From positions 138,142 through 202,141 of the forward strand of contig JAKBJL010000001.1 in the NCBI GenBank assembly GCA_021836035.1: 64,000 nucleotides of DNA, read 5' to 3'. Of this stretch, positions 4,882-37,171 are shown piece by piece. Made by a program: the position numbers and the translations under genes. The stretch comes from a bacterium (GTDB taxonomy: Bacteria > Patescibacteriota > Microgenomatia > JAMCZE01). The stretch's first letter is position 1, and each line of letters starts with the position of its first letter. The notes beneath the pieces are model-generated. The model did not search any database. It was not told where the DNA came from and worked only from the letters and a program-made list of their open reading frames with translations.

Positions 4882-7809
4882 TTATTCTAACCAGACGTTA
4901 GCGCTCTTCCAGTGCACCCGGATTTTGACACCATAATTCCCCGGTGCGCTAACAGTGTAGGCCTGGCTGGCTTGATAGAAAACATTGCCGCCGGTGTCTT
5001 TTCCCGGTGCCCGGACGGTATTAACTATCTCGTTGGATACCTCCGTTCCGTCTTTAGTAATAATAAAGTTGATCTGGTCAATGCTGTCGGTACCGGAACT
5101 GACCCAGCCGAAACCGGTAAACGTTACCAGATCCCCTACCCGTACGGTACTTAAATCTTTGTCCGCCTGAACCAGCTGGCAGGCGGCAGTAACTGTCGGT
5201 GGCGGACTGGTAGAGATTGTCGGGGTAACCGGCGGAGTAGGGGAAAGAGTGGGCGCGGCGGAAACGGGAGGTACTACCTGAGCCGTCAGTTTACAAGAGG
5301 ATGCGTGGCCGCAAAGGAACCGCGGCGGGGCATCAACACAATCCGCCCGGCATTCACTGATCGCGTCGTTCCAGACCCGGCCGTAAACAACCGTGGTCCC
5401 CGCCTGGGTTGGAGTCCAGGTAAAGGTATAGGTTCCGGGCCCGCCGTGCTGCTGGGCATAAGGAATAACATTGTTGGAACAGGAATTGATGTAGCCGCTT
5501 ATCGCGACATCGGTAACCGTCCCGGCGGCCTGCAGGGAAAAAGTATAAGGGGTTCCGATCACCAAATTATTCAAGTCGGCGGTAGTGGTAAGGCTTGTGC
5601 AGTCCGGCGGCGGCGGTTGGGTAGAAACCGACGGTACAACACAGTCGCAGTTGTAATAAATGCCGCCGGCCATAATACTTCCGCCCGGTGGATAGGGAGC
5701 ATTCAGACAATCGAGCTGTACCACGGCACAGGTGGGATAGGTCGAAGTAATGACGCAGGATCCGGTACTACTAGTACAGGTGCCTACCTGACTACAGGAA
5801 ATATCCGGATTTTGGCAAGTACTGAGCTCCCCTACCAAATTGGGTCCGCAATTGCTGTCGCGGCACTTTAAACATTGATTCCAGCCGGCTTCGTCATGGC
5901 TAAACTGTTTAACCACTAAAGCTCCGTAATAGGTTTCCGAACCGCTACCGTTTGGTTGCCCTCCGCCGAAACAGAGGGTAGAGGCAGTATTGGAATCGGC
6001 GCGACTTCTGGTCTCCTGCTTCCGCTGGGTTAAGAAAATACCGCCGGCCAGCCCGCTCAATAAAACCAAAGCCGCTAAGGCAATTAACACCGTATTTTTC
6101 CCGTAGGGTGAGCTTTTGATCGGCGGAAGAACCACGGAAGGCATCTCGCTGCTTCCTGCCGGGCTAACGGTAGGAACTGCCTGCGCGGGAGGCGTTACCG
6201 GCTCCGGGGGCGGCGGAAGCGCGTTGGCAGTCAACGGTTTAACTTCCGCTACCGGTGGATTTGTTTCCGGTAAATCAGCTATCGAAGGTTTTTCGGGCGT
6301 TTCCGTTTTGGTAGGCCGCAGGAGTCGGTATAAACTGATGAGCACGACGCCCAGGGCAACCACAAGAACCACCACGCCCAACTTCGGAACGAAAGCCAGC
6401 ATGGCGATCACTCCAATAGTATACAGTCGGTTTCCGGCGATTGCACGCCGGGAGATTAACATTCCTGCTCCGGTAAGAAAAAAACCCAATACCGCCAAAA
6501 GTATCGTTTGCGCGGTAGCTCCGGATGTCGGGGCCCGAGGCGATGAGACCGGAACGGCTACCGGTGTAGGGCTCGGAGTCGGAATAGGAGTCGGCGAAAG
6601 ACGCGGCGTAGGAGAGGGACGGGGGGTCGGTGTGGGTGAAATCGCCGCCAGGCTGATCTGCCGTGGGGTCGGAAGGGGCGCAGCGCTGGGAGTGGCTGTC
6701 GTTGCCGGCAAAAGCGGTTCCTGGCCGGCGTTACCGGCGGCCTGAACCGCAAAAGTTCGGGTAATGGTCTGTTTTATACCGGAAGCATCGAGAAAGCTAA
6801 CCGTAATCGTATGTATACCGGGCGTCAGAACGCTGGACAAAACATAAGACCAGTTGCCGTCGGGTGCGGATTTGACCGAAGCGGAGATAACTCCCGCGGA
6901 ATGGATTTCAATCTGTAAAACCTTATTAGGCGGGGCCTTGCCGCGGAAAGTCGGCAGGGGATCGTTGATTACACCCTGATCCGCAGGACTGGAAATGGTC
7001 AGACCGGCTGAGGGGCTGGCCCCGCCCCTGGCGGGGCTTGCAACCTCCGGTGTCGGGCCAGGAGAAGCTATCGGCGCTGCTGTACACTGACCGCTCTTCC
7101 CCAGGGTGATATCCGGAAAGGGCTTGTCCAGACCGACAGTACAGTTAAGGGTAGCGGTTCCGTCTGGGCCTGCCTCGACCGTTAAAACTTCCGGGGTCTG
7201 TGGTCCGATCTCCGCAAAACCGCTCAGGTCTGCCGTCCGACCGGCGTTGACCATCATGAGAAAATTACCGTTGCTTTTTACCCGGGCAGAAAGCGGAGCC
7301 ATTCCGGGAATATCCAGATAAACAATCGCTCCCGAAGCGGGCGACCCGTCGCTTTTATAAACCGTGCCGTAAGCCGGATTGCCGACAGAGTCTGCTGCGG
7401 CAGGTACCCTAGCAGTACTAGCCTCATAGGGTTTATTGGTCAGCGGTTCTTTGCTGAAGTTTTCCGTGCCACTGATAACGGCAAAGGCATATTTGCTAGC
7501 CGGTTTTAAACCCGTAACCACAAAATAGTGGGTGACGTATCCCTGGGTTTTGAATAACCCGGAATCGCGTTCGTCGTTAACTTTCCGGCCATCGGTCAGA
7601 GAAATCACTCCGGTGGTCGCAGCATCCGTAAGGTAAGAAACGGTAAAGGTGTTATCGCTGATGTTGGTAATCCGGACGCTTTTAGGAACAGATCCCGGTG
7701 CCGCCCGGGAGGACAATTGACGGACTTGGCTAATAGCATAAACCGCGACGCCCAAAGCGAAGAGCAAAACAAGAAGGGCCAGGATCGTGGGTATGCGTAT
7801 CGGTTGCAT
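4882..7809 (-). CDS. Large (975 aa) surface protein: signal peptide, FN3/Ig-like domains, Pro-rich linkers, internal hydrophobic segments, C-terminal Cys-rich domain
   Basis: N-terminal signal MQPIRIPTILALLVLLFALGVAVYA. FN3-like stretch FTVSYLTDAATTGVISLTDG...YFVVTGLKPASKYAFAV. PT-rich stretches. About 40 Cys in the C-terminal third. Sits directly upstream of the LPXTG gene on the same strand. Confidence 0.6.
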   Translation of the reverse strand: MQPIRIPTILALLVLLFALGVAVYAISQVRQLSSRAAPGSVPKSVRITNISDNTFTVSYLTDAATTGVISLTDGRKVNDERDSGLFKTQGYVTHYFVVTGLKPASKYAFAVISGTENFSKEPLTNKPYEASTARVPAAADSVGNPAYGTVYKSDGSPASGAIVYLDIPGMAPLSARVKSNGNFLMMVNAGRTADLSGFAEIGPQTPEVLTVEAGPDGTATLNCTVGLDKPFPDITLGKSGQCTAAPIASPGPTPEVASPARGGASPSAGLTISSPADQGVINDPLPTFRGKAPPNKVLQIEIHSAGVISASVKSAPDGNWSYVLSSVLTPGIHTITVSFLDASGIKQTITRTFAVQAAGNAGQEPLLPATTATPSAAPLPTPRQISLAAISPTPTPRPSPTPRLSPTPIPTPSPTPVAVPVSSPRAPTSGATAQTILLAVLGFFLTGAGMLISRRAIAGNRLYTIGVIAMLAFVPKLGVVVLVVALGVVLISLYRLLRPTKTETPEKPSIADLPETNPPVAEVKPLTANALPPPPEPVTPPAQAVPTVSPAGSSEMPSVVLPPIKSSPYGKNTVLIALAALVLLSGLAGGIFLTQRKQETRSRADSNTASTLCFGGGQPNGSGSETYYGALVVKQFSHDEAGWNQCLKCRDSNCGPNLVGELSTCQNPDISCSQVGTCTSSTGSCVITSTYPTCAVVQLDCLNAPYPPGGSIMAGGIYYNCDCVVPSVSTQPPPPDCTSLTTTADLNNLVIGTPYTFSLQAAGTVTDVAISGYINSCSNNVIPYAQQHGGPGTYTFTWTPTQAGTTVVYGRVWNDAISECRADCVDAPPRFLCGHASSCKLTAQVVPPVSAAPTLSPTPPVTPTISTSPPPTVTAACQLVQADKDLSTVRVGDLVTFTGFGWVSSGTDSIDQINFIITKDGTEVSNEIVNTVRAPGKDTGGNVFYQASQAYTVSAPGNYGVKIRVHWKSANVWLE

Positions 7810-7811
7810 GA

Positions 7812-8096
7812 TTATCTCCTGATACCGCTGGCGGTGGCAGTTGCGCTTTCGCTTGCCGTTCTGGCTGGAAACTCTGCAACAGTAATCAGCGACTGGAAAA
7901 TATTTACCGGTTCATGCCGCTCTTTTAGTTTTTGAATCACAGCTTTATCAATCTTCGGAGTCAGCGGCAAAGCGATCTCCTCTAAAACCGGAGTGATAGT
8001 GTTGGTCGTATAGGCATGGTAAGCGTCAAAGAACACCCAAGCAATAGCGGCCAAAAGCGTTAAGACAGAAATAAAAAGAAAGTTTTTGCTTCTCAT
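7812..8096 (-). CDS. Small membrane protein, last gene of the pilN/pilO operon
   Basis: 94 aa with one N-terminal TM helix. Translationally coupled to the upstream ORF (4-nt overlap). Confidence 0.4.
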   Translation of the reverse strand: MRSKNFLFISVLTLLAAIAWVFFDAYHAYTTNTITPVLEEIALPLTPKIDKAVIQKLKERHEPVNIFQSLITVAEFPARTASESATATASGIRR

Positions 8097-8725
8097 GGAT
8101 AATATAATCCTTTCACCGTGAGCTTCACCGGCAATTCATTGGCGGGCCGCTTGTTAATGGTGCCCGATTGGGTGTGCTGCCCGATGGTTATTTTGGAAAT
8201 AACAAATATCCGCGGCAGGTTAACCAGCTGTTTTAAGAAATAACTGACCACATCGTAGGTACCCGATAGCTGTAGATCGATAGGAATGGCGGTTACCGCC
8301 GATTGGTTGGCGGAAGAATAATAATTTACCTTGGACACGCTAACCGACTCCAAACGCACCCCACTGGAGCTGGCAGTATTTTCCAATAAAATGATCGCGG
8401 CGCCGAGATCTGGGCTGGCCGGCATCGCTTCGTCCACTAAACCCAGATCCGGTTCAATCTCCTGATACTCCGTTTGGAGAAGGGCCAAAGCGTTAATTTT
8501 GGTGTCCAATTTCTGGGCAAATGCCTTTTTGTCAGTAATCTGTTTTTGTAAACCGACAATCGTCGCAATTGTCGGTCTGATAGCAAAAACCAGAAAGATT
8601 GTCACGGTTACAACAGAAGCGATCAGGGAAAAATAAGCCCGTACCGCGGGGTCTTTTAATAAGGGGCCCGCCGCGCTGTAATAGCGCTTATAACGCCGGT
8701 ATTCGGATCGATAGTCTAAGGCCAT
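8093..8725 (-). CDS. pilO: Type IV pilus assembly protein PilO-like
   Basis: Topology is short cytoplasmic N-terminus, one TM, a coiled-coil, then a periplasmic domain. Lies immediately downstream of and overlapping pilN. Confidence 0.55.
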   Translation of the reverse strand: MALDYRSEYRRYKRYYSAAGPLLKDPAVRAYFSLIASVVTVTIFLVFAIRPTIATIVGLQKQITDKKAFAQKLDTKINALALLQTEYQEIEPDLGLVDEAMPASPDLGAAIILLENTASSSGVRLESVSVSKVNYYSSANQSAVTAIPIDLQLSGTYDVVSYFLKQLVNLPRIFVISKITIGQHTQSGTINKRPANELPVKLTVKGLYYP

Positions 8726-9258
8726 AAAGTAGCGGCGACGGAAAAATTCAGAGTTTTCCCGTCTTCTGCCTGCTCTAATTTATTGACGGCAATATTTTTA
8801 ATCTGGGGATTCTTCTCCAACTCGGTAATAATTGTTTGAATTCCTCCTTCGGATTTAACCGTACCGGTCAGCGTCAGCCGGTTCACATCCAAATTGACGG
8901 AGTCGATCACGGATTCCTCCGGCAGGGCCGTGGTTAAGATCGGCAGATATTTTTCCGGCATTAAAATACTGGCGGTCAGCTTATCAATATTTTGCAATTT
9001 GTCCTGCAATTTACGAACTTTATTTTCAAACGGAGCGGAGGCGGAGATGATGCTTTTCTTGCGGGCAATATCTTCGGAAAGGTCGGTAAGATCCCGATCC
9101 AGTTTAAAGCGGGATAAAAAGGCCAAAAGCACAATCAGTTCGGTAATAACCACAATATAGCGCCCGGCGGTTAAAGCCCAGGCAAGAAATTTTCCCAACG
9201 GCGCCTTTTCAATTTCCGCCTGGGGCAACAGGTTAATTTCCGGCGTCGCCGTCTCCAT
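8716..9258 (-). CDS. pilN: Type IV pilus assembly protein PilN
   Basis: Hallmark N-terminal INLLP motif (METATPEINLLPQAEIEK), a single TM helix and a coiled-coil, about 180 aa. Confidence 0.65.
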   Translation of the reverse strand: METATPEINLLPQAEIEKAPLGKFLAWALTAGRYIVVITELIVLLAFLSRFKLDRDLTDLSEDIARKKSIISASAPFENKVRKLQDKLQNIDKLTASILMPEKYLPILTTALPEESVIDSVNLDVNRLTLTGTVKSEGGIQTIITELEKNPQIKNIAVNKLEQAEDGKTLNFSVAATLWP

Positions 9259-13252: not shown

Positions 13253-14113
13253 ATGCGGCGGTTGTTAATTTGTTCTTTATTTCTCGTCCTTAGCGGTTAC
13301 ATTATTAATTTAGCCAAAAATGATCATGTAGCATTAGCGGCAGAAAACCCCGGCCAATTCCGTTGTCTCTGGTACACATCCGGTTCGAGCTATTGTGGCA
13401 CGGACATAAACGGAAATTCCTGTCAGTCGGGATATAGTGAAGTTCCCCAAATTTGTCTGGAAATAAAAAACCCCTCGGAATGTGACTCCGCTTCCTTTGG
13501 TTGTGTAGAAAAAGCCGGACCCCGGTATAGTTGTAAAAAGAATCAGGGGTGTGTACAGGACCCAAACGGTTACGATAGTTTGACTTCTTGCCAAAATACC
13601 TGTAAAGAACTCGGGGCTGTTAAATGTCCTGAAGGGTGTACCACATATGGCTTGGGTAGCGTCTGCTATGCAGAACCATTAGATATACTTCTTCCGAAAC
13701 CCTGCGAGAGCACTCTCTGTATCCCCTCGGCCGGAGATAAATACACTCAGTATTACTATGATCAAAAAAGTAAGTTTTGTTACTCCGTCAGGCGTGATTT
13801 GAGTCCGGTTTTTCTTTGCGTCGAAGACGGTAGTTGCCAAACCGCTATCGGCACAATATTCGCCAGCCCCGAGGATTTGGTTAAAGTCATTATGCAACTA
13901 GTGATAGGGTTGGTCGGGGGCGTTGCGCTTCTAGTGCTAATTTTAACCGGTTATCAGCTAATGACCTCCTCCGGTGATCCGCAAAAATTAGCGGTTGCTA
14001 AAGAACTAATTGTTTCCGTTATAACCGGTATTCTCATGATCGTTTTTTCCATGGTATTATTACAGGCAATCGGAGTGGATATCTTAAAAATTCCCGCGCT
14101 GGTCGCGCCCTAA
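13253..14113 (+). CDS. Secreted Cys-rich protein with a C-terminal two-helix VirB2/TrbC-like pilin module
   Basis: Signal peptide and about 26 Cys, then GLVGGVALLVLILTGYQLMTSSGDPQKLAVAKELIVSVITGILMIV. This C-terminus is paralogous to the three downstream small proteins. Confidence 0.5.
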   Translation: MRRLLICSLFLVLSGYIINLAKNDHVALAAENPGQFRCLWYTSGSSYCGTDINGNSCQSGYSEVPQICLEIKNPSECDSASFGCVEKAGPRYSCKKNQGCVQDPNGYDSLTSCQNTCKELGAVKCPEGCTTYGLGSVCYAEPLDILLPKPCESTLCIPSAGDKYTQYYYDQKSKFCYSVRRDLSPVFLCVEDGSCQTAIGTIFASPEDLVKVIMQLVIGLVGGVALLVLILTGYQLMTSSGDPQKLAVAKELIVSVITGILMIVFSMVLLQAIGVDILKIPALVAP

Positions 14114-14114: not shown

Positions 14115-14465
14115 ATGAGATTCCCGGGTTTTAGAACCATCGAGCTGCCCAACGGCTTCCCTACCGGAGGCTTGAGTATTATTGCTACGATCATCGTCAA
14201 TTTAGTATTGCTAGCCCTGATTATTATCTTTATTCTCGCCTTTTCTTACCTGGTTATCGGCGGTCTTAAGTGGATTGCCTCCGGCGGCGACAAACAAGCC
14301 CTTGCTTCCGCCCGGTCTGCTATTACTTATGCTGTACTTGGACTTGTACTTGCGCTGGTTTCTTTTGCCATAATTAACTTTGTCTCCTGCTTTTTTGGCA
14401 TTTATCTTGGTTTAGGAGGTGGCTGTTGGTCTACTGCCCAAATTACCCATGGGCTTACTCCATAA
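14115..14465 (+). CDS. Small two-helix membrane protein, VirB2/TrbC-like pilin candidate (paralog 2)
   Basis: A hydrophobic helix, a loop (IGGLKWIASGGDKQALASARSAI), a second helix, and a GLTP terminus. Starts 1 nt after the upstream stop. Confidence 0.5.
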   Translation: MRFPGFRTIELPNGFPTGGLSIIATIIVNLVLLALIIIFILAFSYLVIGGLKWIASGGDKQALASARSAITYAVLGLVLALVSFAIINFVSCFFGIYLGLGGGCWSTAQITHGLTP

Positions 14466-14518: not shown

Positions 14519-14574
14519 TAGACGAGAAGCAGGGTCCAGTTATGCTACAACCATAAGTGGCGAAGGGGGTGAAT

Positions 14575-15003
14575 ATGAGAGATTTAAGAAAATTAATTAC
14601 TACCGCTACAATATTAGCCAGCGGCTTATATTTTGCTGCGCCCGTTTTTGCCCAAAATATAAATCTTTGCCCCACTAACGGTGGTAACCTATGCTCGCTC
14701 ACGATCCCTGCGGTTATTACCGGTCTTATCCAATTTGTTTTAATAGTCGCTTTCCTTCTGGCCTTTGCCTTTCTAGTCATGGGAGGCATTAGGTGGATTT
14801 TAAGCGGTGGCGATAAAGCAGGAACGGAAGCGGCCAAGGGGACTATCACTGCGGCTCTTATCGGCCTAATTGTTGTCCTGGTTGCTTGGGCTATTCTCAA
14901 TTTGGTTAAAACTTTCTTTGGCATTAATTTTGATCTCGGTTCATTGGCCATACCAACCATAACCAATCCGGCAACAAATCCTAACCACGGAATAACCCCA
15001 TAG
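14575..15003 (+). CDS. VirB2/TrbC-like pilin candidate (paralog 3) with a cleavable signal peptide
   Basis: MRDLRKLITTATILASGLYFAAPVFA signal, then FLVMGGIRWILSGGDKAGTEAAKGTITAALIGLIVVLVAWAI. Start moved to the ATG that has a ribosome-binding site; the listed ORF starts at an upstream GTG. Confidence 0.5.
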   Translation: MRDLRKLITTATILASGLYFAAPVFAQNINLCPTNGGNLCSLTIPAVITGLIQFVLIVAFLLAFAFLVMGGIRWILSGGDKAGTEAAKGTITAALIGLIVVLVAWAILNLVKTFFGINFDLGSLAIPTITNPATNPNHGITP

Positions 15004-15015: not shown

Positions 15016-15048
15016 AAAACCCGCCCGAATATCAAAGGCGGGTTTTTG
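15016..15048 (+). terminator. Rho-independent terminator
   Basis: aaaacccgcc - cgaatatcaaag - ggcgggtttt followed by a T-rich run. It lies directly after the TAG stop at 15003. Confidence 0.6.
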
Positions 15049-15066
15049 GTGTGTTATACTAAAAAG

Positions 15067-15396
15067 GTGAACGGTTGTGATTGGAATGCATTAAAAGGTG
15101 GCGGAGGTACGGTTCCAACACTTCCCTGCCTAGCGGAGTTTTTTGTGCGGATTATCGGCGCCCTTTTTCTCTTTTTGGGAGCGGTAAGCTTGCTATTTTT
15201 ACTTTATGGTGCCGGGCGTTTCGTTATTTCTTCAGGGGATCCAAAGGCTATAGCCGGAGCCCGTAACACTATGACTTACGCTCTCCTTGGTCTTGTGCTT
15301 ATACTTATCTCCTTCGCCATTCTCCGTTTCGTCGGGGGTTTCCTGGGGCTTCCCGAAGATACCCTCTTAAACTTCAGGCTCTGGGTCGGTCCTTAA
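15067..15396 (+). CDS. VirB2/TrbC-like pilin candidate (paralog 4); start codon uncertain
   Basis: LYGAGRFVISSGDPKAIAGARNTMTYALLGLVLILISFAIL matches the paralog consensus. The listed GTG start at 15046 lies inside the upstream terminator, so a downstream start is more likely. Confidence 0.4.
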   Translation: MNGCDWNALKGGGGTVPTLPCLAEFFVRIIGALFLFLGAVSLLFLLYGAGRFVISSGDPKAIAGARNTMTYALLGLVLILISFAILRFVGGFLGLPEDTLLNFRLWVGP

Positions 15397-15442
15397 TATA
15401 TTCTCCTTGACACCTACCGCTTCCTTAGCCATAATGTAACTA

Positions 15443-17089
15443 ATGAAAAAACTGGGAACGGTCGCGATCCTGGTCCTGTCTTTTTTCTTTTTGACAGCTT
15501 CTTCTGTTTTGGCCCAAACCAACGCCCAACGAAGGACAACTTGCGTCCAGGCCTGTCCAGCCGGAAACGGGGCCGCAGCCTGTGTAGCTAATTGCTATCA
15601 ACTTTACCCCCAAAACCAGAATAATACGCCTATCGAAAACCGCGCTGCGGAAGGCCTTTGGCAGGGAACTCCTATTGATCCGACGCTCCCCCTTTATCAA
15701 AAACAGGTTGAGGAACAGCAGCAAAAAGGCGGTGCTTATGAATGGATGAGCCAGGTAACTTTTAACTATCTGGCTTTGGCGATCACTAATAAAATTGCCG
15801 GCAGCCCCGTGACCGGACCTAACGGCAACGTTACCGGTTATCGGGGGGGGGCGATTAATCTTTTTGCTTCCCTGACCGGAACAATGTATGCTAATAAGCC
15901 GGCTTCTACAGGACAATATGTCCAATATTTGGCGCAAAACGCCGGCTTTCCCAATCTTGTTCCGGTAGCTTACGCCCAAAGCGGCGGAATTGGTTTTCAA
16001 GGATTAAATCCGATCCTACAAATTTGGCAGGTGGTCCGTAATTTAGCTTACCTGGCTTTTGCCGTGATCTTTGTTATTATCGGTTTGATGATCATGCTCC
16101 GGGTGAAGATTGATCCCAAGACTGTAGTTTCCATCCAAAACGCCCTGCCGAAAATCTTTTTGTCCTTAATTTTAATTACTTTTTCCTACCCTATCGCCGG
16201 ATTTCTAATTGATTTAATGTATGTATTAATTGGCGTGATTATCAGTCTTTTTGCCGGCGCTTTCGGTTCTTTTGATGTCACGGGTTTTAGACAAAATATA
16301 CAATATAAAACCATTTTTGAGTTTGTCGGTACCAACCTTTTTATCATGCCATCTTTCCAGAGCGGAAAATCCATCAATGATATTATTGTCGCCTTAACCG
16401 GAAACATCCCCGGTGTTTCTAATCTTTTTGGTTTTGTCGGCGGGGTTATTGGCGGGCTCATAATCTCTCTTGCCATTCTTTACGCCCTTTTTAGAACCTG
16501 GTTGATGCTTCTGGGCGCTTATATCAATATTATTATCGGCGTGATCCTTTCGCCCCTGGCGATGCTTGCCGACGCTATTCCCGGCCAGAGCGGCTTTTCC
16601 GCCTGGCTTCGTTCCATGCTTTCTAATCTCTTGCAGTTCCCTCTGGTTATTACTTTGCTCCTTTTTGGCGGCGGTTTGGTTTCCATGTCTAACCAATTCC
16701 AGCCTTCTCAAAACCCGGGTGGACCTTTTGTTCCGCCACTTATCGGAGGCAGCGATCCCAATGCGATCCCCGCCCTTATCGGTATTGGTATACTACTGAT
16801 GATCCCGAAAGCGGGAGCCATGTTGCAAGAATGGTTAAAATCTCCGCCGTTTAAACACGGTATGGCCTGGGCCGAAGCAGTAGGCTGGGCTTATTCTCCG
16901 TACGCAGGGGGTCTATTAGGGCAACCAAGGGGTAGAGAGGCTGCTGCGCAAGCAGAACGCGGTGGTTTACCACGAGGAATTTGGGATCGTTTATCCCCCC
17001 TGCCCGGAGCTGCTGCCACTGCAGCTAGCGGAGCATTAGCCCGAAGAAGATCTCCCACTGGTGGTTCGCCTTCAGCTACTACACCTTAA
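15443..17089 (+). CDS. VirB6/TrbL-like polytopic membrane protein
   Basis: Signal peptide, an extracytoplasmic domain of about 180 aa, at least six TM helices and a hydrophilic C-terminal tail. Lies immediately downstream of the pilin-like paralog array. Confidence 0.5.
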   Translation: MKKLGTVAILVLSFFFLTASSVLAQTNAQRRTTCVQACPAGNGAAACVANCYQLYPQNQNNTPIENRAAEGLWQGTPIDPTLPLYQKQVEEQQQKGGAYEWMSQVTFNYLALAITNKIAGSPVTGPNGNVTGYRGGAINLFASLTGTMYANKPASTGQYVQYLAQNAGFPNLVPVAYAQSGGIGFQGLNPILQIWQVVRNLAYLAFAVIFVIIGLMIMLRVKIDPKTVVSIQNALPKIFLSLILITFSYPIAGFLIDLMYVLIGVIISLFAGAFGSFDVTGFRQNIQYKTIFEFVGTNLFIMPSFQSGKSINDIIVALTGNIPGVSNLFGFVGGVIGGLIISLAILYALFRTWLMLLGAYINIIIGVILSPLAMLADAIPGQSGFSAWLRSMLSNLLQFPLVITLLLFGGGLVSMSNQFQPSQNPGGPFVPPLIGGSDPNAIPALIGIGILLMIPKAGAMLQEWLKSPPFKHGMAWAEAVGWAYSPYAGGLLGQPRGREAAAQAERGGLPRGIWDRLSPLPGAAATAASGALARRRSPTGGSPSATTP

Positions 17090-17092: not shown

Positions 17093-18958
17093 CTATTTCG
17101 GTTGAGCATACCTACCGAAATACATTTTAAGCACTTCGCTTTCGAGGACAACTGTTGAATTCCTGCTCAAAAAATTACCCTGTTTCATCGCTTGTAATAC
17201 CGCCCTTACTTGCTGATTCGTCCAATACGCCCGCTTATAAGGATTAATAGGATTATCCGGTACCGCCTCAGGAGAGCCACACCAAAAAACTCCTAGAATA
17301 TAATTGAAGCGCATTTTGTCTAAAGTAGCCTCTTGGAATTCTTTTAATGAAGCTCTTGTGTCGGGCATACCTGGCGGTACTCTTAAAAGGGTAGGGCAAA
17401 AAGCGGTAACCCGGTTAATCAGCTTATGCATAGAATCCCAATAACCCGGGTCAACCAGTTTTTTAAGATCCTGGCCTCTTTCTTTGAAGGTGCTGACAAT
17501 GGTGTTAGCAAAAGCTAAATCATAACCGAAATAGCCCGCATATTGGGTGGGTTCCAATTGCCAGAAAGGCATTTGTTTCCAAGTATAATCAGAAAGCCTC
17601 CGCGGTTGCCCAGCGTCTGCAACCTGCACTGAGCGGAAAAAGTCCCCGACTATCTCTGCCCTGGTCACATCAGCGGGGTTAAAAACAAAAACCGCCTTGG
17701 AAGTTTTATTTTTTTTCAAAATATCAATTCTCCTTTTGGCCATATCCTTCGCGCGGCCTTCCCGCGGCCAACCGCCGTAAGTGGCAATATTATCCTGTTC
17801 CGGTGCCGCCCAGTAAGCCCCGACAGTAATATCCGGTCCGGCCGGGTCGCCTTTCATAAAATCGTTGCGCCGCTTGTATTCAAAGTGCATAAGATCCCGA
17901 TCTTCACCGATGGTCGTATGTTGTTCCCTTTCTTTGTCCCACATAGACATGGTTAAATTGCAGGTTAAATAATCGCCAGCTAGTTCGGTAGCCCAGCGAG
18001 CTTGGAAACGGGTGTAATGGTCCTCGTCAACCAATTTATTCTCAATCTGTGCTTTAAAATAAGCCATATACGCGTCTGATTGAATCGCGTCTTTAAAGGA
18101 AATGGTTCCGCGATAAGGATCGGTATAGGCTTCCCCCGCCGCTTTCCATTCGTTCAAAGCGGCGCTAACAGGAATTTTTGCATCCGTGTTACTGACGAAA
18201 GGAAAAATTTCATCCAGATGGGTTATCGTCCAATGATCTTCGGGAGTAAGGTTGGTAAACTTAATCGTGGTTTGCGCTTGAACTTCCGGTGAAACCACCC
18301 CCATAACCGCCAGCGATCCTTTGGACGATTCAATTTCTACTTTGCGATTTCTGATGCGACACAAAGCCCAAAGGGTAGATTTCAATGCTTCCTGATATGG
18401 AACTTGGCGTTCATAACCGAGTCCGGCACCTCGAAACACAGTTACAAAGTTGAGTTTTAAATCTTCCGGCATCGCATCCAAGCCGTTGACTATTGAAGAT
18501 AGTTCTAAATTCTCAGAAATCCTCTCCTGAAATAGTTTACCGTTGATATTTTCGTATTGTTCAAAAACGGTGCCTAAAACCGCTTCCATCCAGCCGTCAA
18601 CACTATTCGGATCCTGCGGGCCTATTTCTAAACGATAGGGTGCCGCTACGGGGCGATTGGTAGCGGACCTGCCTGAAAAAGTCGTTCCTCCGGCAACCGG
18701 GCCCTTACCCTTTTTCATCAATTCATCGATATCGTCCAATTCCTCAGGTTTTAACTCCCCGCCGGACCCCACTATCTCACGAATATAGTTTCCCCAGGCA
18801 ATTTTAATATTAGGCAAGGTTGCCTTTTCCCGCGGGCGCGCAATTTCCTTACAAGGCGCTTCCTGTGATTTGCCCGTTTGTACTCCCGATAATATCTCAG
18901 GAGATCTGGTAGAGGCTCCTGCTTCCGGCGGCCGATATACTCCTTCTCCTTCTGCCAT
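17093..18958 (-). CDS. Hypothetical cytoplasmic protein (621 aa), no recognisable domain
   Basis: Long ORF with no signal peptide, TM helix or Walker motifs. Trp/Tyr-rich. Convergent with the VirB6-like gene. Confidence 0.5.
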   Translation of the reverse strand: MAEGEGVYRPPEAGASTRSPEILSGVQTGKSQEAPCKEIARPREKATLPNIKIAWGNYIREIVGSGGELKPEELDDIDELMKKGKGPVAGGTTFSGRSATNRPVAAPYRLEIGPQDPNSVDGWMEAVLGTVFEQYENINGKLFQERISENLELSSIVNGLDAMPEDLKLNFVTVFRGAGLGYERQVPYQEALKSTLWALCRIRNRKVEIESSKGSLAVMGVVSPEVQAQTTIKFTNLTPEDHWTITHLDEIFPFVSNTDAKIPVSAALNEWKAAGEAYTDPYRGTISFKDAIQSDAYMAYFKAQIENKLVDEDHYTRFQARWATELAGDYLTCNLTMSMWDKEREQHTTIGEDRDLMHFEYKRRNDFMKGDPAGPDITVGAYWAAPEQDNIATYGGWPREGRAKDMAKRRIDILKKNKTSKAVFVFNPADVTRAEIVGDFFRSVQVADAGQPRRLSDYTWKQMPFWQLEPTQYAGYFGYDLAFANTIVSTFKERGQDLKKLVDPGYWDSMHKLINRVTAFCPTLLRVPPGMPDTRASLKEFQEATLDKMRFNYILGVFWCGSPEAVPDNPINPYKRAYWTNQQVRAVLQAMKQGNFLSRNSTVVLESEVLKMYFGRYAQPK

Positions 18959-29114: not shown

Positions 29115-30503
29115 ATGAACCCCGGCGATATTTGGAAAACGGTTCTGGCGGAAATTGAAGTAGACCTGGGGAAAAGCACGACCAAAATTAACTTCAGTAA
29201 CAGCCGGCTTTTATCCCTGGAAAAAGGTATTGCCAGGATATCGCTGGCAACCAATTTAGCCCGGGAAACCGTGGAAAAAAGATATTATGTTCTGCTGCAA
29301 AATGCCCTCGAACGACAAAGCAAAGAAAAATTATCGCTTGTTTTTGAAGTAATCAAACCGGAGCTGGCCGCTCCCGCCGGACCACTCTTTGAAACCCTCA
29401 ACTTTCCGGAACAGGTCAATAAACCGGATATCAGCCGGACAGACAGTTTTAATCTGTCCAATACCGAAGAACAATACCGTAAAACCGGTCTCAATCCCAA
29501 GTACAGTTTAAAATCTCTGGTGGTCGGCGCCAGCAACAATTTTGCACACGCCGCGGCTATGACCATCTGTAAAAACCCCGGGAAAGAATATAATCCCTTC
29601 TTTATTTACGGCGGAGTCGGAGTTGGTAAAACCCACCTTATGCAGGCCATCGGCAATGAACTTTTTGTCCGCAACTCTAATCTGCGGATTTTATACATAA
29701 CCGCCGAGCATTTTATGAACGATCTAGTCGCCTCTTTACAACAAAAAACTATGCCTGCTTTCAAGAAACGCTATCGGGAAGTCGATGTTTTATTAGTGGA
29801 CGATATCCAGTTTATTTCCAAAAAAGAAGCTATGCAGGATGAGTTTTTCTATACTTTTAATTCCTTATTTATGGGCGAGAAGCAGATTATTCTTACCTCC
29901 GATCGGCCGCCGCAAGAAATCCAGGTCGAGGACCGGCTTCTTTCGCGCCTGATGGGCGGTTTAGCCGCAGATATTCAAACTCCTGATCTGGAAATGCGCA
30001 TCGCTATTATTAAACAAAAATTATCCGCCCGGCGAGAAAACTGGGATGAGGCTTCGATAGAATACCTGGCTACCCGTTTGGAAAACAACATCCGGGAAAT
30101 TGAAGGTGCTATGCAAAAAATTATGGCCGTCTCCCAGTCCGCAAACACGCCGGTAAATTTGGATTTGGTTAAAAAAGCCCTGGGAGTAGCCAACGGCCTC
30201 GATAAGCCCCCGGTTCCGGCTTCGCCGCAAAAAATTATCTCCGCGGTTTCCAAAGTCTTCGGGATTAAACAGGGAGATATTCTTTCCGATAAGCGCGATG
30301 CGGAATTTGTTTTACCCAGGCAGGTAATCATGTTCCTTTTACGGACGGATTGCCGGATTAAACTGGAAGAGGTTGCCCGGATTATGAAACGCAAAGACCA
30401 TACGACGGTTATCCACGCCGTGGGGAAAATTGAGAAACAGTTTGCGGATAATCAACAGCTAAGGCAACAGATTTTGTTGATAAAACGGGAAGTTTGGGGA
30501 TAA
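29115..30503 (+). CDS. dnaA: Chromosomal replication initiator DnaA
   Basis: AAA+ Walker A GGVGVGKTHL, Walker B LLVDDIQF, and a C-terminal DNA-binding domain (TDCRIKLEEVARIMKRKDHTTVIHAV). Confidence 0.9.
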   Translation: MNPGDIWKTVLAEIEVDLGKSTTKINFSNSRLLSLEKGIARISLATNLARETVEKRYYVLLQNALERQSKEKLSLVFEVIKPELAAPAGPLFETLNFPEQVNKPDISRTDSFNLSNTEEQYRKTGLNPKYSLKSLVVGASNNFAHAAAMTICKNPGKEYNPFFIYGGVGVGKTHLMQAIGNELFVRNSNLRILYITAEHFMNDLVASLQQKTMPAFKKRYREVDVLLVDDIQFISKKEAMQDEFFYTFNSLFMGEKQIILTSDRPPQEIQVEDRLLSRLMGGLAADIQTPDLEMRIAIIKQKLSARRENWDEASIEYLATRLENNIREIEGAMQKIMAVSQSANTPVNLDLVKKALGVANGLDKPPVPASPQKIISAVSKVFGIKQGDILSDKRDAEFVLPRQVIMFLLRTDCRIKLEEVARIMKRKDHTTVIHAVGKIEKQFADNQQLRQQILLIKREVWG

Positions 30504-30761
30504 CTTACCCAAACTGTCCACAAACTGCCGGGAATTATCCACAAAGATATCAACAAGAAAAGTTCAATTATCAACAGAGATAATCTTAAGCTTAAAGCTA
30601 ATAGTTAATGGCTAATAGGTTAATAGATGACAAGAACAAAATAAAATGCATTTATCAACATTATAAATCAGACTGGCCAGGCTGGGCTGCCCACAAATAC
30701 ACAAAGACTACTAACAAACAAATACTAATTGTAAATAGGAAAGGGGGCGGCTAAGATTACA
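30504..30761 (+). promoter_or_regulatory. Candidate oriC: a DnaA-box cluster plus an AT-rich unwinding region in the dnaA-dnaN spacer
   Basis: Perfect TTATCCACA at 30537-30545. Box variants TGTCCACAA (30516-30524), TTATCAACA (30569-30577 and 30652-30660) and ATATCAACA. An AT-rich tract at 30585-30670. Confidence 0.6.
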
Positions 30762-31901
30762 ATGATGAAACTAGAAATATTACAGGAAAATTTGCTGAAG
30801 GGTCTCTCTATGGTAGGACGGGTGATCACTTCCAAGCCGCAAATGCCCGTACTGGCAAACATTCTATTGGAAACCGATAACGGCAGATTAAAACTCAGCG
30901 CTACGGATTTGGAAATCAGCATTACCACCTTAATCGGAGTCAAAATTCTTAAAGAAGGCAAATATACCATTCCGGCTAAAACTTTCGCGGAACTGGTCGG
31001 TAGCCTGCCTCCCGGGAAAGTGGAGATGGAATTAGAAGAAGGCCAGTTGGCGATAACCGCCGGCCGGTTTAAAGCCAAAGTTAACGGTGTACCGGCGCAG
31101 GAGTGGCCACTAAAGGCGATGGAAGGTAAAAAAACCGCAGGTTGGAAATTGGAAATCGCCGCGGAGGAATTCATTGTCGGTGTTGCCTGTACTTCCTTTG
31201 CTGCCGCCGCAGACGAGGGTCGGCCTGTACTTACCGGAATCTTATTTAAATTAACCGATTCCGGTTTAACCATGGTGGCTACTGACGGTTTTCGCTTATC
31301 GGTAAAAAAACTGGCAGCCGTAAAGGCGGAAGGAAAAGGGGAAGAAACAAGATCCTTTATTATTCCAGTGAAAGCGCTACAGGAGGTTGCCCGCATTTTG
31401 AGCGAGAATAAAGAATTAAAGATATTAAAAATCAATCTTACGGAAAACAGCGCGGATTTTGATTTGGGAGATACCCAGCTTTCTGCCCGTTTAATTGAGG
31501 GGCTTTATCCTGCATATGAAAAGATTATTCCCGGCGCTCCGGTGATTAAAGCCCGGGTCGGACGGGAAGAATTAGCTTCCGGGATCCGGACAGCCGGGGT
31601 TTTTGCCCGCGACAGCGCTAATATCGTCAAATTTGTTTTAAACAAATCTCAATTTTTAGTCAAAGCGGTAGCCGCTCAAGTAGGAGAGAATGAAAGCGAA
31701 ATTGACGCTAAAATCGAAGGGATAGAAGAGGAATTGGCAATTGCTTTTAATTTCCACTATCTATTGGATCTTTTAAATTGTGCCGGGAAAAGCGAAGAAC
31801 TGACTTTGGGTTTTTCCGGTCCTCTGGCCGCCGGGATGTTTAAAATCTCCGACGATCAGAGCTTCCTGCATATTATTATGCCTGTTCGGGTGCAGAGCTA
31901 G
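30762..31901 (+). CDS. dnaN: DNA polymerase III beta sliding clamp
   Basis: MKLEILQENLLKGLSMVGRVI...LANILLE...LKLSATDLE, a three-domain 379-aa protein. Lies next to dnaA. Confidence 0.85.
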   Translation: MMKLEILQENLLKGLSMVGRVITSKPQMPVLANILLETDNGRLKLSATDLEISITTLIGVKILKEGKYTIPAKTFAELVGSLPPGKVEMELEEGQLAITAGRFKAKVNGVPAQEWPLKAMEGKKTAGWKLEIAAEEFIVGVACTSFAAAADEGRPVLTGILFKLTDSGLTMVATDGFRLSVKKLAAVKAEGKGEETRSFIIPVKALQEVARILSENKELKILKINLTENSADFDLGDTQLSARLIEGLYPAYEKIIPGAPVIKARVGREELASGIRTAGVFARDSANIVKFVLNKSQFLVKAVAAQVGENESEIDAKIEGIEEELAIAFNFHYLLDLLNCAGKSEELTLGFSGPLAAGMFKISDDQSFLHIIMPVRVQS

Positions 31902-33729
31902 CCTCTTTTTCCCTTTGTTTTTTAGCGGCGATGAGCTCCTCGGGCTTACTGGTGATGAGTTCGTGTTCTTCGGGGGAGGCGACCACCTGTATGGCGACAT
32001 GCGAGGAGCCGGCAAAGAAAAGGCCTTGGCCGACATTGGCTGAAAGCAGAAGGCTTTTTTCTCCCTCGGAAAGATAAAATATCTGCGCCACTTTATCAAT
32101 CGCCGCCGGTGACTGTTTCATCAGCATTTGAATACTGCTGTTGGTAACAATGGTTTTACCCAGGTCGGTGGCGAGGAAATCTTCGATGTCCTGGGTAATC
32201 GTCGTTAGCCCCAGGTAATATTTGCGGGCGCGTTTAGCAAAACCCCATAAAAATTCGGCGCTGTTCTGGTTTTTCATTAAATACCAGCCTTCATCGACGA
32301 TTAAAATCCGCCTTTTCATTTTCCTTTTTATCTGGCTCCAGACATAATCCATAATGATAAAAATTGCCAAGCTGCGCATTTGATCCTCCAGGTTTTTAAA
32401 GGAGAATACGGTAAAAGAATTATTGAGATTCACGGTCGAGCGCTGGTTAAAGACGCCGCCGAAACTGCCTTTGACAAATTTTTCCAGGCGCAAAGCCAGA
32501 TTTTGGGCTATTTGCGTTTCCATCCCGATCAGTGTCCGATAAAGGTCTTCGAGAAGCGGCGGTTCGTTTCTGTGGGTAGCCGGATCATAGGTGATCCCTT
32601 TTTGTTTATAAGTCAGCTCCAGGGCGTTGTGCAAAATAGCATCTTCTTCGGCGGATTTTGTTTCGACCATAATTTTAAGAAGCCGCGCCAGGGTAAAACC
32701 GATTTTTAGCTGCAGTTCGTTCTCTGCTTCTTCACCGGAGCCGGATAAATCGAAAGGGTTGATATGGGTATCGCTGCCGAAAGCAAAGGAAATATAATCG
32801 CCGCCCACAGAATCGGACAGGCTTTTATATTCCTCTTCCGGATCGACAATAATCACATCCGTACCGAACATCAGAGAACGCAAAGCTTCTAATTTGACTA
32901 AAAAACTTTTTCCGCTGCCGCTTTTTCCTAAAACTACTTCATTGGCGTTTTCTAAAGAAAAACGGTCAAAGATAATCAGCGATCCGTTATGTTCGTTGAG
33001 GCCGTATAAAATTCCAGAATTAGCGGTTAGTTCCGAAGAGGTAAAAGGAAAGGTGGTAGCGAGCGACGTGGTATCCATATTGCGGGTGATCATCAGTTTG
33101 TCCAGACAAGTAGGAGAAGTAGTTTTAAAACCGTCCTCCATCTGGAGGGTCGCCGGCTTGCTGATAATCAAAAGCGCTCCTAGGGTGGAGGAGACCTCTT
33201 TAGTTAACTGGTTTAACTGTTCGATGCTGTCGCTGCTGATAGTGACATAAAGCCCGAATTGGTAAAACTTTTCCGCACCTTTGGCCAGTTGTTCCTGAAG
33301 ATTTAACGCGTCATCAAGAGCTACCTGGACATTGGGGTCAATTACTTTGCCGCGCTTGATATCGCTTTCAATGGTTGCTTCCATTTCTGCAATTTTCCGT
33401 TTCATATCGGAGAGGATCTCCTTGGACTCAACGGGATAAATAAAGATGGAAACGTCCAGACTGCTGTTGAAATTAATAAGCGGCGCCAGCCAATTGGCGC
33501 TGACAAACCGCGGGTAGCCGGCGACAAAAAGGGTGCGGTAAAATTTTTCCCCGATTTTTAAATAATCAAAATCAACTTCGATGGCGGCCGGGGCGATGAT
33601 ATCCTGGACGGTAACCATCCCGGCAGCCAGGGATTTGTCAGGGCCTTCCGGTACGCTTTCGGGCTGGAAGCGCTTTACCAGAGGGATGTTAATTTTGGGC
33701 AGTTTAACCATAAGAGAATCTTTAATCAT
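31876..33729 (-). CDS. VirB4/TrbE/CagE-family T4SS ATPase (C-terminal two thirds)
   Basis: CagE/TrbE/VirB4 signature IIAPAAIEVDFDYLKIGEKFYRTLFVAGYPRFV. Walker A GKSGSGKS. Walker B RRILIVDEGW. RKYYLGLTTITQ. Confidence 0.75.
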   Translation of the reverse strand: MIKDSLMVKLPKINIPLVKRFQPESVPEGPDKSLAAGMVTVQDIIAPAAIEVDFDYLKIGEKFYRTLFVAGYPRFVSANWLAPLINFNSSLDVSIFIYPVESKEILSDMKRKIAEMEATIESDIKRGKVIDPNVQVALDDALNLQEQLAKGAEKFYQFGLYVTISSDSIEQLNQLTKEVSSTLGALLIISKPATLQMEDGFKTTSPTCLDKLMITRNMDTTSLATTFPFTSSELTANSGILYGLNEHNGSLIIFDRFSLENANEVVLGKSGSGKSFLVKLEALRSLMFGTDVIIVDPEEEYKSLSDSVGGDYISFAFGSDTHINPFDLSGSGEEAENELQLKIGFTLARLLKIMVETKSAEEDAILHNALELTYKQKGITYDPATHRNEPPLLEDLYRTLIGMETQIAQNLALRLEKFVKGSFGGVFNQRSTVNLNNSFTVFSFKNLEDQMRSLAIFIIMDYVWSQIKRKMKRRILIVDEGWYLMKNQNSAEFLWGFAKRARKYYLGLTTITQDIEDFLATDLGKTIVTNSSIQMLMKQSPAAIDKVAQIFYLSEGEKSLLLSANVGQGLFFAGSSHVAIQVVASPEEHELITSKPEELIAAKKQREKEASSAPEQA

Positions 33730-33759
33730 TATTATATATGAAGAAGGGAACCTTGAGAA

Positions 33760-34437
33760 TTACTGGGTTGAGATTGCCGGAGAAGTGTAAGGGACGCTGC
33801 CGACCAGCTCTGTTCCTTCGGCGCCGGGATTATAAATAGTGTAAAAAAGCTCGATCAATTCCTGGGTGTTAAGCTGCCGGGCGCGCAGTCCCAGGCGCCC
33901 GAGCTGTCGGTAGATATGTTCTGCCTTAGGGGCTAAAGCGACCTTGGCCTTTTCGATGATCGTTTCTACCGGCAAAGGCAAGCCGGTTTGTTTAATCAAA
34001 AGCTTTGCCGAGCTGGAAACCCCCAATTCCAGGGAGCTGAAAGGGATGCAAATGTAGAATTTTTTGTCCAGGACGTTGTTTTCTTTGACTGTTTTGACGA
34101 TAAAATCACGGTATTTGGCAATCTGGTTTTTAAGAAGGGCGTTCTGTTGTTCATCCTCTGCTTTCTGAAGCTGGGATACGTAGGAGGAAATATCTTTACG
34201 TTTACTCCTGATGACGATCTGAATGGGGAAAGTGAGTGAATTTAAAAGGCCGGCATAAGCGTAAATAATTGCGTCCTGTTCCATTTCGGACAAAAGGCCG
34301 AAGTTGACGGCGGTAGTCTGGATGGTCAGGGTAACGGAACCGTCTTTAAGAATGATTAAATTATCCCGGATATCATAGATTTCCAGGTGTTCCTGAGTAG
34401 CCCCGCGGATAGCAACTTTACTAAGGTCGACGGGCAT
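33760..34437 (-). CDS. VirB4 N-terminal-domain-like protein, encoded separately 30 nt upstream of the ATPase ORF
   Basis: Soluble 225 aa protein (DIRDNLIILKDGSVTLTIQTTAVNFGLLSEMEQDAIIYAYAGLL), resembling VirB4/TraC N-terminal regions. The gap to the next ORF contains a stop codon and a possible AAGG ribosome-binding site. Confidence 0.45.
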   Translation of the reverse strand: MPVDLSKVAIRGATQEHLEIYDIRDNLIILKDGSVTLTIQTTAVNFGLLSEMEQDAIIYAYAGLLNSLTFPIQIVIRSKRKDISSYVSQLQKAEDEQQNALLKNQIAKYRDFIVKTVKENNVLDKKFYICIPFSSLELGVSSSAKLLIKQTGLPLPVETIIEKAKVALAPKAEHIYRQLGRLGLRARQLNTQELIELFYTIYNPGAEGTELVGSVPYTSPAISTQ

Positions 34438-35953: not shown

Positions 35954-37171
35954 TTAAGCCGCAGCCGATTGCTTTTCCTGAAGGCCTTCGGTTTGACTGC
36001 CGTCTGCTTCCGCGCTTTCCTTGGCCTCAATTTCTAACGGGGTAACGACATTGCCGTCTAATTTAATTTCTAAAATGTCGAAATGATAACCCTCTTTATC
36101 CATTTCCAAATAATAAGTGCCGCTTTCCAGCGGGGTGCTGGCTAAAAACTGGCCGACTTTATTAGTCCGCAGGGCCCGGACGCTAGTTCCCTGGATGTTT
36201 TTAATAATAACGATAACCCCGGGAAGAATTTGGTCCTGGGCATCTTTAACTACCCCGGAAATCAGGTTGGGAGTGGTAATTTGGAAAATGCCGGCGTAGG
36301 CCGGCTTGGGCGGTTTCTTTTCCGTTTTGGGCTGGGCGGGCTTGGCGTAAGGCGAATATCTTTTGGGGAAGGTCAGGTTTGCCGCTTTAATTTCCGTTGC
36401 CTCCTTGATTGTCGACTGCGGCAGCTTGGCTTGCTCCCGGATTTTTACCATCTCGTCGATGGTAATTGTCGCCTTTGGGGCCGTCTCTTTTGGTGCTTCT
36501 TGAACCCGCGCCTGTACCTGTTCTTCTAGCGGGGGTATTTTTTCCTCCGGCGACGGCTCTTCCGACGGGACTTTCGCGTTTTGATCACCGGAAAATTCCT
36601 TTAACAAATCTTCGCGGATGCGGATGAGGTCCTCGATGCCCATCTGTCGTTTTTCGTTGGGTTTTTCTTCAGGCGGGGGCAGGGGATTTAGCGCTACCTG
36701 CGGAGCCTCTTCCGCCGCCGCTTCTTCCGGTTCGGTCTGGGGCAGGGTTTGCAGATACTCCTGCAGGCGGGTGTCAGTAGGCGCCGAAGCCGCGGCTTGC
36801 TCTAAAGACACCGGCGGGGCTAAAGGTTCTTCGGTGGTCTCGGGAATATTCCAGACTCCCGCCTGTTTGCGCCCGCTTTTTTTCCAAAGATAAAGTGTCG
36901 GGCGGTAGATAGAGCGGAAGAAATTGATGACCCAGATGTCCAGCGGCCGCTCATTGACCGGGACAAAGGCAAAAGTGACCCCGGAAACAATAAAAAGGAT
37001 TGCCAGGGGGAATTTGATAATAGCATACCAATCGGAAGCATAGAAGATAAAAGCGGTAATAAATCCGGCCGCCAGGTAGCCGAATTGTTTCAGGGTCATA
37101 TCGCCGACCAGCTTAAACTCAAAACCGGTAATGTTCTGAGGGACAGGATGCTGCTCCATGGCAAATTTCAT
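35954..37171 (-). CDS. PrgI/VirB3-like two-TM N-terminal module fused to a Pro/Glu-rich linker and a C-terminal CarboxypepD_reg-like beta-sandwich domain
   Basis: N-terminus FKLVGDMTLKQFGYLAAGFI...FVPVNERPLDIWVINFFRSIYRPTLYLW resembles PrgI-family (VirB3-like) proteins of Gram-positive T4SS. C-terminus VKDAQDQILPGVIVIIKNIQG...GTYYLEMDKEGY. Confidence 0.4.
   Translation of the reverse strand: MKFAMEQHPVPQNITGFEFKLVGDMTLKQFGYLAAGFITAFIFYASDWYAIIKFPLAILFIVSGVTFAFVPVNERPLDIWVINFFRSIYRPTLYLWKKSGRKQAGVWNIPETTEEPLAPPVSLEQAAASAPTDTRLQEYLQTLPQTEPEEAAAEEAPQVALNPLPPPEEKPNEKRQMGIEDLIRIREDLLKEFSGDQNAKVPSEEPSPEEKIPPLEEQVQARVQEAPKETAPKATITIDEMVKIREQAKLPQSTIKEATEIKAANLTFPKRYSPYAKPAQPKTEKKPPKPAYAGIFQITTPNLISGVVKDAQDQILPGVIVIIKNIQGTSVRALRTNKVGQFLASTPLESGTYYLEMDKEGYHFDILEIKLDGNVVTPLEIEAKESAEADGSQTEGLQEKQSAAA

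Follow-up and report, generated by a model that had tools for sequence, protein, structure and literature searches.

A very divergent VirB6-like protein encoded beside a VirB2-like pilin array in a Microgenomates-group Patescibacterium

Directly downstream of an array of four VirB2-like pilin genes, in the 64,000-nucleotide stretch of DNA analysed here (the window), lies a gene for a long polytopic protein, and the question is whether this protein belongs with the pilins as part of a T4SS. We consider it probable, with good confidence, that this gene codes for the VirB6 subunit (TrbL superfamily) of a chromosomal, monoderm-type T4SS in a Patescibacterium of the Microgenomates group. The VirB6 assignment, which had been proposed earlier from the letters of the DNA and its open reading frames (the sequence-only reading), is supported overall by the results given below; it rests on transitive homology, the predicted fold, the pattern of predicted helices and gene linkage.

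The gene, its product and its family

The gene extends over positions 15443..17089 of the forward strand and is an ORF of 548 aa with an ATG start, exactly as the sequence-only reading had it. The protein is identical to a gene call in the public MAG GCA_027371575.1 (contig DAHXMT010000002.1). Judged by sequence comparison, this is a genuine ORF and not a chance reading frame, because a word-indexed search with the protein returned 274 database homologues and an exhaustive profile search returned 5,462 clusters (at 50% identity) with E ≤ 1e-3, at least 2,828 of which reached E ≤ 1e-30. Relatives are found in at least 584 species-representative genomes, and all the source names shown for family members in the searches read "hypothetical protein". 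The homologues carry labels such as Microgenomates, Levybacteria, Gottesmanbacteria and Collierbacteria, and the family is apparently confined to the Microgenomates group of the Patescibacteria. A promoter-like site, TTGACA-17-CATAAT (15407..15435, forward strand, 11/12 consensus matches), ends 7 nt upstream of the ATG; since 11 such sites were seen across the region against 9.0 expected by chance, it is a candidate only.

The protein begins with a putative signal peptide (aa 1-24, 15443..15514), in which the hydropathy scan and the sequence give the order M-KK, hydrophobic core (hydropathy 2.23 over residues 6-24) and VLA/Q, the last being the predicted cleavage site. The A-Q motif at this site (A24) is at least 90% conserved across the family, in agreement with the signal peptide proposed earlier. 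It is followed by a hydrophilic segment (residues 25-188 or thereabouts, 15515..16006), which we delimited from the sequence and the family consensus and take to be an extracytoplasmic N-terminal domain; such a domain had been foreseen, although its length is about 165 aa and not the 180 or so first suggested. The membrane-proximal 90 aa or so are conserved family-wide, with the motifs GGAI, PPAS..DY, AYA and G.GF..L.P, while the distal part of roughly 75 aa is variable and has, near the N-terminus, two CX3C motifs with four Cys in all. The lineage of the protein under study has lost a pair of Cys that the other family members retain with at least 90% conservation, and has the twin CX3C motifs instead.

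The remainder of the protein comprises a predicted helical core, here named the VirB6 core (aa 189-464, 16007..16834), and a C-terminal tail (aa 465-548, 16835..17086). Within the core there are five long hydrophobic stretches (194-226, 234-282, 322-382, 391-419 and 440-462), which on hydropathy have room for six to seven membrane spans. The claim of at least six transmembrane helices therefore stands as regards the number of hydrophobic spans, but not necessarily as regards their location, as the greater part of the "TM helices" in the VirB6 of R388 lies outside the membrane (PMC9259494); a channel subunit that crosses the inner membrane with six helices is therefore the older picture of VirB6. 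The loop between the first two hydrophobic helices, RVKIDP(K/R)T, is invariant in the family. The tail, about 85 aa in length and rich in Gly, Pro, Ala and Arg, was left disordered by AlphaFold (pLDDT <50) and is weakly conserved in the alignments, and corresponds to the hydrophilic tail already noticed from the sequence.

The pilin array and the related loci

The four genes directly upstream are on the same strand as the VirB6-like gene, and all of them matched the T4SS_pilin family (PF18895), so that the position after VirB2-like genes on which the sequence-only reading relied is borne out. The first (13253..14113, 286 aa; E=1.1e-7 over residues 213-273) has a Cys-rich ecto-domain followed by a C-terminal VirB2-like hairpin, and a long first gene of this kind is also seen in two relatives (L004 and L007). 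The second (14115..14465, 116 aa; E=1.8e-6) and the third (14557..15003, 148 aa from a GTG start, 142 aa in the MAG call; E=2.3e-8) scored, like the first, above the curated cut-off of 26.6 bits, under which the fourth (15046..15396, 116 aa; E=5.5e-4) remained with 20.4 bits. The fourth gave 105.7 bits with an HMM of CPR pilin domains, but it is in that model's training set. In the window, the matches of the CPR pilin HMM were the four array genes and none elsewhere.

On its other side, the VirB6-like gene meets a convergent gene on the reverse strand (17093..18958), which encodes a soluble protein of 621 aa and lies tail to tail with it at a distance of 3 bp. This protein matched no Pfam or NCBIfam family, and its only matches were in its own genome and in one close relative. 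In 63 of 71 related loci, a convergent ORF of at least 250 aa lies no more than 300 bp from the stop codon of the VirB6-like gene. A single family for these downstream proteins was considered and rejected, as they fell into many small groups in BLASTP and jackhmmer searches, and none of the 10 that were scanned had a credible Pfam domain. The 621-aa protein is a positional partner of the VirB6-like gene.

Other T4SS genes are present in the window, all on the reverse strand. A VirB4-like ATPase (31876..33729, 617 aa) matched PF19044 P-loop_TraG (E=3.9e-33) and AAA_10 (E=9.7e-12) and adjoins dnaN. Directly upstream of it, a soluble protein of 225 aa (33760..34437) is without a Pfam match; 14 of 34 related loci have a homologue of this protein, placed between the PrgI-like and the VirB4-like gene, and by comparison with the clusters described in PMC12102498 it is a candidate TrsD-like partner. 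Further on, a protein of 405 aa (35954..37171) combines a PrgI/VirB3-like part (PF12666, E=1.4e-6) with a CarboxypepD_reg domain (PF13620, E=1e-7), and the same fusion adjoins the pilin array in L007. The T4SS parts are split around dnaA (29115-30503), with the VirB4-, TrsD- and PrgI-like genes 15-20 kb from the VirB6-like gene. The genes dnaA and dnaN (30762-31901) are about 12 kb downstream of the latter and close to the minimum of the cumulative GC skew. With murJ and lepA upstream of the pilin array, and ribosomal protein L25, polysaccharide synthesis genes and yidC downstream, the window is a chromosomal region of housekeeping character. Among its genes, none was recognised as VirB5, VirB8, VirD4 or a relaxase.

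The linkage between VirB6-like and pilin genes was evaluated in 80 related loci. Their ORFs were searched with the pilin HMM, which was derived from twelve domains of CPR pilins, and also with the VirB4-like, TrsD-like and PrgI-like proteins of the window. Of the loci, 34 extended for 8 kb or more to either side, and every one of these had at least two pilin-like genes within 10 kb, a linkage far above background, because in the window the matches of the same HMM are restricted to the array. This agrees with the virB2...virB6 logic that had been read from the gene order. Within the same distance in these 34 loci, PrgI-like genes were detected in 20, TrsD-like genes in 14 and VirB4-like genes in 11. 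The complete order of pilins, VirB6-like, PrgI-like, TrsD-like and VirB4-like genes, all on one strand, is present in L017, L037 and L042, and in L030, L050 and L084 the same order continues until the flank ends inside the VirB4-like gene. Collinear clusters, with six to eight pilins, occur in several lineages, for example Gottesmanbacteria, Shapirobacteria and Curtissbacteria. The arrays of the relatives have 2-9 pilin genes, and a pilin gene is directly upstream of the VirB6-like gene in 15 of 66 loci. The murJ-lepA synteny with the upstream pilin recurs in the relative that carries the family member P0009.

These data bear on an alternative in which the protein is a true VirB6 homologue that acts mainly as a DotA-like gated protochannel, for the export or import of substrates, and not as the base of a pilus. 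The neighbouring "pilins" would then form a short conduit only, or have other roles at the surface. We consider this improbable: the linkage to multi-gene VirB2-like arrays in 34 of 34 loci argues for a direct tie to pilins, and no IcmX-like partner was identified. Both roles are nevertheless compatible in current models of the T4SS, and the two views differ in emphasis without contradicting each other.

Profile searches and predicted fold

Taken alone, the protein had no match in Pfam (E ≤ 1), NCBIfam or the sequences of the PDB and is itself below any VirB6 profile, and a profile of 49 family sequences gave only chance coiled-coil matches against the PDB sequences. When 129 family members were scanned singly against Pfam, PF04610 (TrbL/VirB6) was matched by six at E<0.1, with best values of 1.3e-7 and 1.9e-7. 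It was the best-scoring Pfam family in both sets of members (3/49 and 3/80), and no other family matched the 129 with strong E-values, so the HMM search suggested earlier favours TrbL/VirB6; the TrbL profile had no match in the other 123 members (~95%). The best match was that of P0092, a homologue related to our protein at E=2.7e-52, whose residues 314-502 scored 32.0 bits (E=1.3e-7) against a curated cut-off of 25.9 bits and correspond to residues 321-453 of our protein in the family alignment. Because P0092 passes the TrbL cut-off, our protein would be joined to TrbL/VirB6 by transitive homology. Neither in the protein itself nor in the 129 members did the Pfam scans give a match to a PrgH- or TcpH-type family.

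Direct comparison with VirB6 proteins of the IncN type was made with a reference of 15 proteins seeded with TraD of R46, a narrow alignment because the word-indexed search gave just 27 close relatives of TraD. Using hhalign, the family (49 or 129 sequences) aligned with this reference only over short, non-significant stretches (E 0.15-0.17, probability <1%), in which two residues that are invariant in the family, P371 and W388, are paired with P183 and W201, likewise invariant in the IncN VirB6 set. The register of P371 and W388 was constant between hhalign and hmmsearch. The family HMM gave collinear matches of 5-13 bits with the IncN proteins in hmmsearch, scores that are near the noise of about 5 bits, since an unrelated bitopic protein of the window (58565-60577) obtained 4.9 bits.

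Some resemblance to pilins was also seen. T4SS_pilin (PF18895) was weakly matched by 7 of the 49 members and by 9 of the 129 overall (best 7.5e-4), and the CPR pilin HMM gave 11-16 bits in about 15 of 120 members, always at helix 1, the loop and helix 2. Our protein itself had no PF18895 match and obtained 1.3 bits with the CPR pilin HMM.

The AlphaFold2 model, computed from the 49-sequence alignment, has a mean pLDDT of 74, with values of 84-94 over most of residues 190-470. In a Foldseek search of the PDB with this model, the structural comparison that had been proposed as a check, ranks 1-8 were all chains of TrwI (best E=7.7e-3, prob 1.00) and rank 9 was DotA. TrwI (PDB 7o3v) has seven long helices, of which 1, 2 and 5-7 are hydrophobic and just 1 and 2 are in the membrane (PMC9259494). 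The predicted structure has the same arrangement, with hydrophobic helices at 189-218 and 225-273 (separated by the RVKIDP(K/R)T loop), 325-368, 384-418 and 441-464, and amphipathic helices 3-4 at residues 279-318.

One could argue that the likeness in long helices is convergent and that the few TrbL matches stem from hydrophobic composition, the protein being a lineage-specific polytopic protein not homologous to VirB6, for example an insertase, a maturation factor or an anchor for the pilins of the array. We regard this as very unlikely. That the gene encodes a solute transporter or permease lying beside the pilin genes by chance is effectively refuted, as there was no profile or fold match to MATE/MurJ, MFS, ABC permeases or others, and thus no confident assignment to an unrelated transporter, the outcome that would have spoken against VirB6.

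Proposed role and comparison with known systems

If the protein is a VirB6 subunit, its role may be outlined by analogy with R388 (PMC9259494), Dot/Icm and pCF10 (bioRxiv 10.64898/2025.12.18.695078; review PMC12857230). The signal peptide would be cleaved and the N-terminal domain would stay outside the cell, while the protein would be held in the cytoplasmic membrane by helices 1 and 2, whose connecting loop, RVKIDPKT, would face the cytoplasm. Above the VirB3/VirB4 ATPase complex, five copies of the protein would come together as a dome. VirB2-like pilins embedded in the membrane would dock at helix 1 and be lifted onto the top of the dome, and their stacking would give a pilus or conduit that grows from its base; the dome would also be the first chamber of the translocation path. 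The location of the gene at the 3' end of a four-pilin array would couple the production of the platform to that of its substrate.

Minimal VirB6 proteins lack the conserved, predicted extracellular domain that our protein has at its N-terminus, and we can only speculate that this domain sits outside the membrane, on the pentamer or around it. A bolder idea, to which we give little credence, is that the conserved N-terminal half is a built-in primer or cap that could replace the missing VirB5 or mimic the first layer of pilins. This half consists of the signal peptide, the extracellular domain and a hairpin of helix, charged loop and helix, which is faintly similar to the neighbouring VirB2-like pilins. 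To see whether it is VirB5-like, the N-terminal domain was modelled alone; it reached a pLDDT of 68 and a pTM of 0.36, and with this low-confidence model a Foldseek search of the PDB found no fold match, which speaks neither for nor against a likeness to VirB5. Were the idea true, a monoderm T4SS could nucleate a VirB2-type pilus from VirB6 alone, and the protein would represent a pilin/VirB5-VirB6 fusion architecture undescribed for any T4SS.

T4SSs, VirB2 arrays and VirB6 homologues in Patescibacteria have already been described, and what is new here is a large unannotated family. A survey of 3,035 genomes found VirB6 to be scarce in Microgenomatia, "suggesting extreme sequence divergence", while pilin arrays were especially abundant in that group (PMC12102498). 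Because the present family is abundant in Microgenomatia and has the expected place in the clusters, it is probably the Microgenomatia VirB6 that the 2025 survey barely found. The subject matters since the one Patescibacterium amenable to genetics cannot lead its epibiotic life without the T4SS genes and the VirB2-like arrays (PMC12857230), and since the field is now asking whether monoderms are able to make a VirB2 pilus. The family offers a handle for modelling multimers of pilins and VirB6, an HMM for genome annotation and a conserved extracellular domain that can be tested. The picture of how T4SSs work is unchanged by it: the protein is a very divergent and architecturally extended version of a known component, and not evidence of a new kind of system.

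Among characterized systems, the closest in predicted fold is TrwI (PF04610; MPF-T, Proteobacteria). In common with it are the seven long helices, with 1, 2 and 5-7 hydrophobic, and the company of VirB2-, VirB3- and VirB4-type genes; the Pro...Trp of the helix 5/6 region, in register in alignments that are not significant, may be a further likeness to the VirB6 family. In contrast to TrwI, to which its sequence similarity is below significance, our protein is about 200 aa longer, adding a putative cleavable signal peptide, the extracellular domain of some 165 aa and the disordered C-terminal tail. Its host is a monoderm without an outer-membrane complex, no VirB5 was detected, and the gene is chromosomal, near oriC, rather than on a conjugative element. 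The VirB6-like protochannel subunit DotA, from the Dot/Icm system of Legionella (PDB 9ngy), shares no sequence similarity with our protein. Its solved chain has 857 residues, and its partner is the VirB5-like IcmX, of which there is no counterpart among the neighbours here.

PrgH of pCF10 and the MPF-FATA class share with this locus the monoderm setting, a PrgI-type VirB3, here found in the window, and a virB6 gene near small VirB2-like genes. The Patescibacteria VirB4 is phylogenetically closest to that class (PMC12102498), and AlphaFold models have VirB2 pilins, encoded near virB6 on Gram-positive plasmids, stacking on VirB6 pentamers (bioRxiv 10.64898/2025.12.18.695078). The VirB6 proteins of MPF-FATA are around 300 residues in length (PMC12857230), and the present locus further differs from that class in its four divergent pilin genes.

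In gene content, the system is the same as the T4SS already described from Patescibacteria themselves. For this group, 480 VirB6 homologues have been reported, most of which matched the MPF-T profile and not PrgH (Quinonero-Coronel et al. 2025, PMC12102498), and in the cultivated Saccharibacterium Ca. Southlakia epibionticum the T4SS, VirB6 and pilin-array genes are essential (PMC12857230). Compared with the VirB6 proteins reported so far, the present family is mostly missed by the TrbL profile (123/129) and is abundant in Microgenomatia. Patescibacteria T4SSs are monoderm-type and chromosomal, with VirB2-like arrays, PrgI, TrsD and VirB4, often near dnaA (PMC12102498), and the window likewise has a VirB2-like array, PrgI-, TrsD- and VirB4-like genes, and dnaA.

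Pilin array and neighbouring large ORFs

The first gene of the VirB2-like pilin array was long (247-286 aa) in all three of the four-gene arrays examined, namely those of the window (13253-14113) and of the related loci L004 (5861-6640) and L007 (15185-15928). In each case, the pilin hairpin of its product is preceded by a signal peptide and by an extracellular domain rich in cysteine; this pilin may be of the tip or adhesin type. Many related clusters also carry an additional large ORF of 666-1206 aa on the same strand, either separating the pilin array from the VirB6-like gene or lying immediately 5' of the array (L017:3185-6328, L042:7824-9824, L037:6421-9354, L060:3209-6829, and L004:3601-5841). 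No counterpart of this ORF was found in the window.

Downstream, the VirB6-like gene faces a 621-aa ORF (17093-18958, minus strand), tail-to-tail and with a gap of 3 bp. A convergent ORF of at least 250 aa occupies this position in 63 of the 71 related loci (median about 1000 aa), for example L004:9635-11236, L005:7223-10249, L007:9634-12381, L017:7873-10107, and L030:11177-15040. Because their sequences evolve so fast, the encoded proteins fall into many BLASTP clusters (sizes 29, 6, 3, 3, and then smaller). The window copy, for which the Pfam scan returned zero matches, has hits in no genome other than its own and that of one close relative. The product might serve as an effector or substrate, or might be a component that has escaped recognition.

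A divided T4SS cluster and a second appendage locus

The rest of the T4SS (29115-37171) adjoins the replication origin, in the order dnaA, dnaN, VirB4-like gene (31876-33729), candidate TrsD-like gene (33760-34437, with a 225-aa soluble product), ZIP transporter, DNA glycosylase, and a PrgI-CarboxypepD_reg fusion (35954-37171). In the relatives, the VirB4-like, TrsD-like, and PrgI-like genes form one uninterrupted cluster with the pilin/VirB6-like block. In the window the cluster is divided, and its two parts lie on opposite strands with about 15 kb between them. A few kb from the pilin array, the minus-strand interval 4882-9258 is a second, separate surface-appendage locus. It comprises pilN (8716-9258) and pilO (8093-8725), both for type IV pilus assembly, followed by a gene (4882-7809) whose 975-aa product has Big_13, fn3, and filamin repeats.

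Among loci L009-L087, many of the MAGs that have T4SS_pilin arrays along with the VirB6-like family bear the record title "uncultured Gammaproteobacteria" or "uncultured Pseudomonadales", and one bears the title "Clostridia". Since every informatively named record with the family belongs to the Microgenomates-group CPR (Patescibacteria), these titles probably reflect placeholder or erroneous taxonomy rather than a wider host range.

The VirB6-like gene and its pilin-like hairpin

A near-consensus sigma-70-like promoter (TTGACA-17-CATAAT, 11/12; 15407-15435) ends 7 nt before the ATG of the VirB6-like gene, with no Shine-Dalgarno sequence between them, which suggests a leaderless or near-leaderless transcript besides read-through from the pilin genes; the total count of such sites across the region was not above chance. 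Near its N-terminus, the query protein bears twin CX3C motifs, C34/C38 and C47/C51 (aa 34-51, 15542-15595), on a predicted helical hairpin. The query lacks the Cys...Cys loop (consensus C-x13-CLG), whose conservation among the other family members is at least 90%.

The first hairpin of the family, a helix-charged loop-helix unit (query aa ~198-275, 16034-16267), shows weak similarity to VirB2-like pilins, with the same placement every time, in P0053, P0111, P0043, and other members. Pfam T4SS_pilin matches 9 of the 129 family members at this hairpin. With the profile built from twelve CPR pilin domains, the query itself scored only 1.3 bits. About 15 of 120 VirB6-like family members reached scores of 11-16 bits with this profile, compared with at most 4.7 bits for unrelated membrane proteins and no meaningful match (at most 0.1 bits) among the IncN-type VirB6 proteins.
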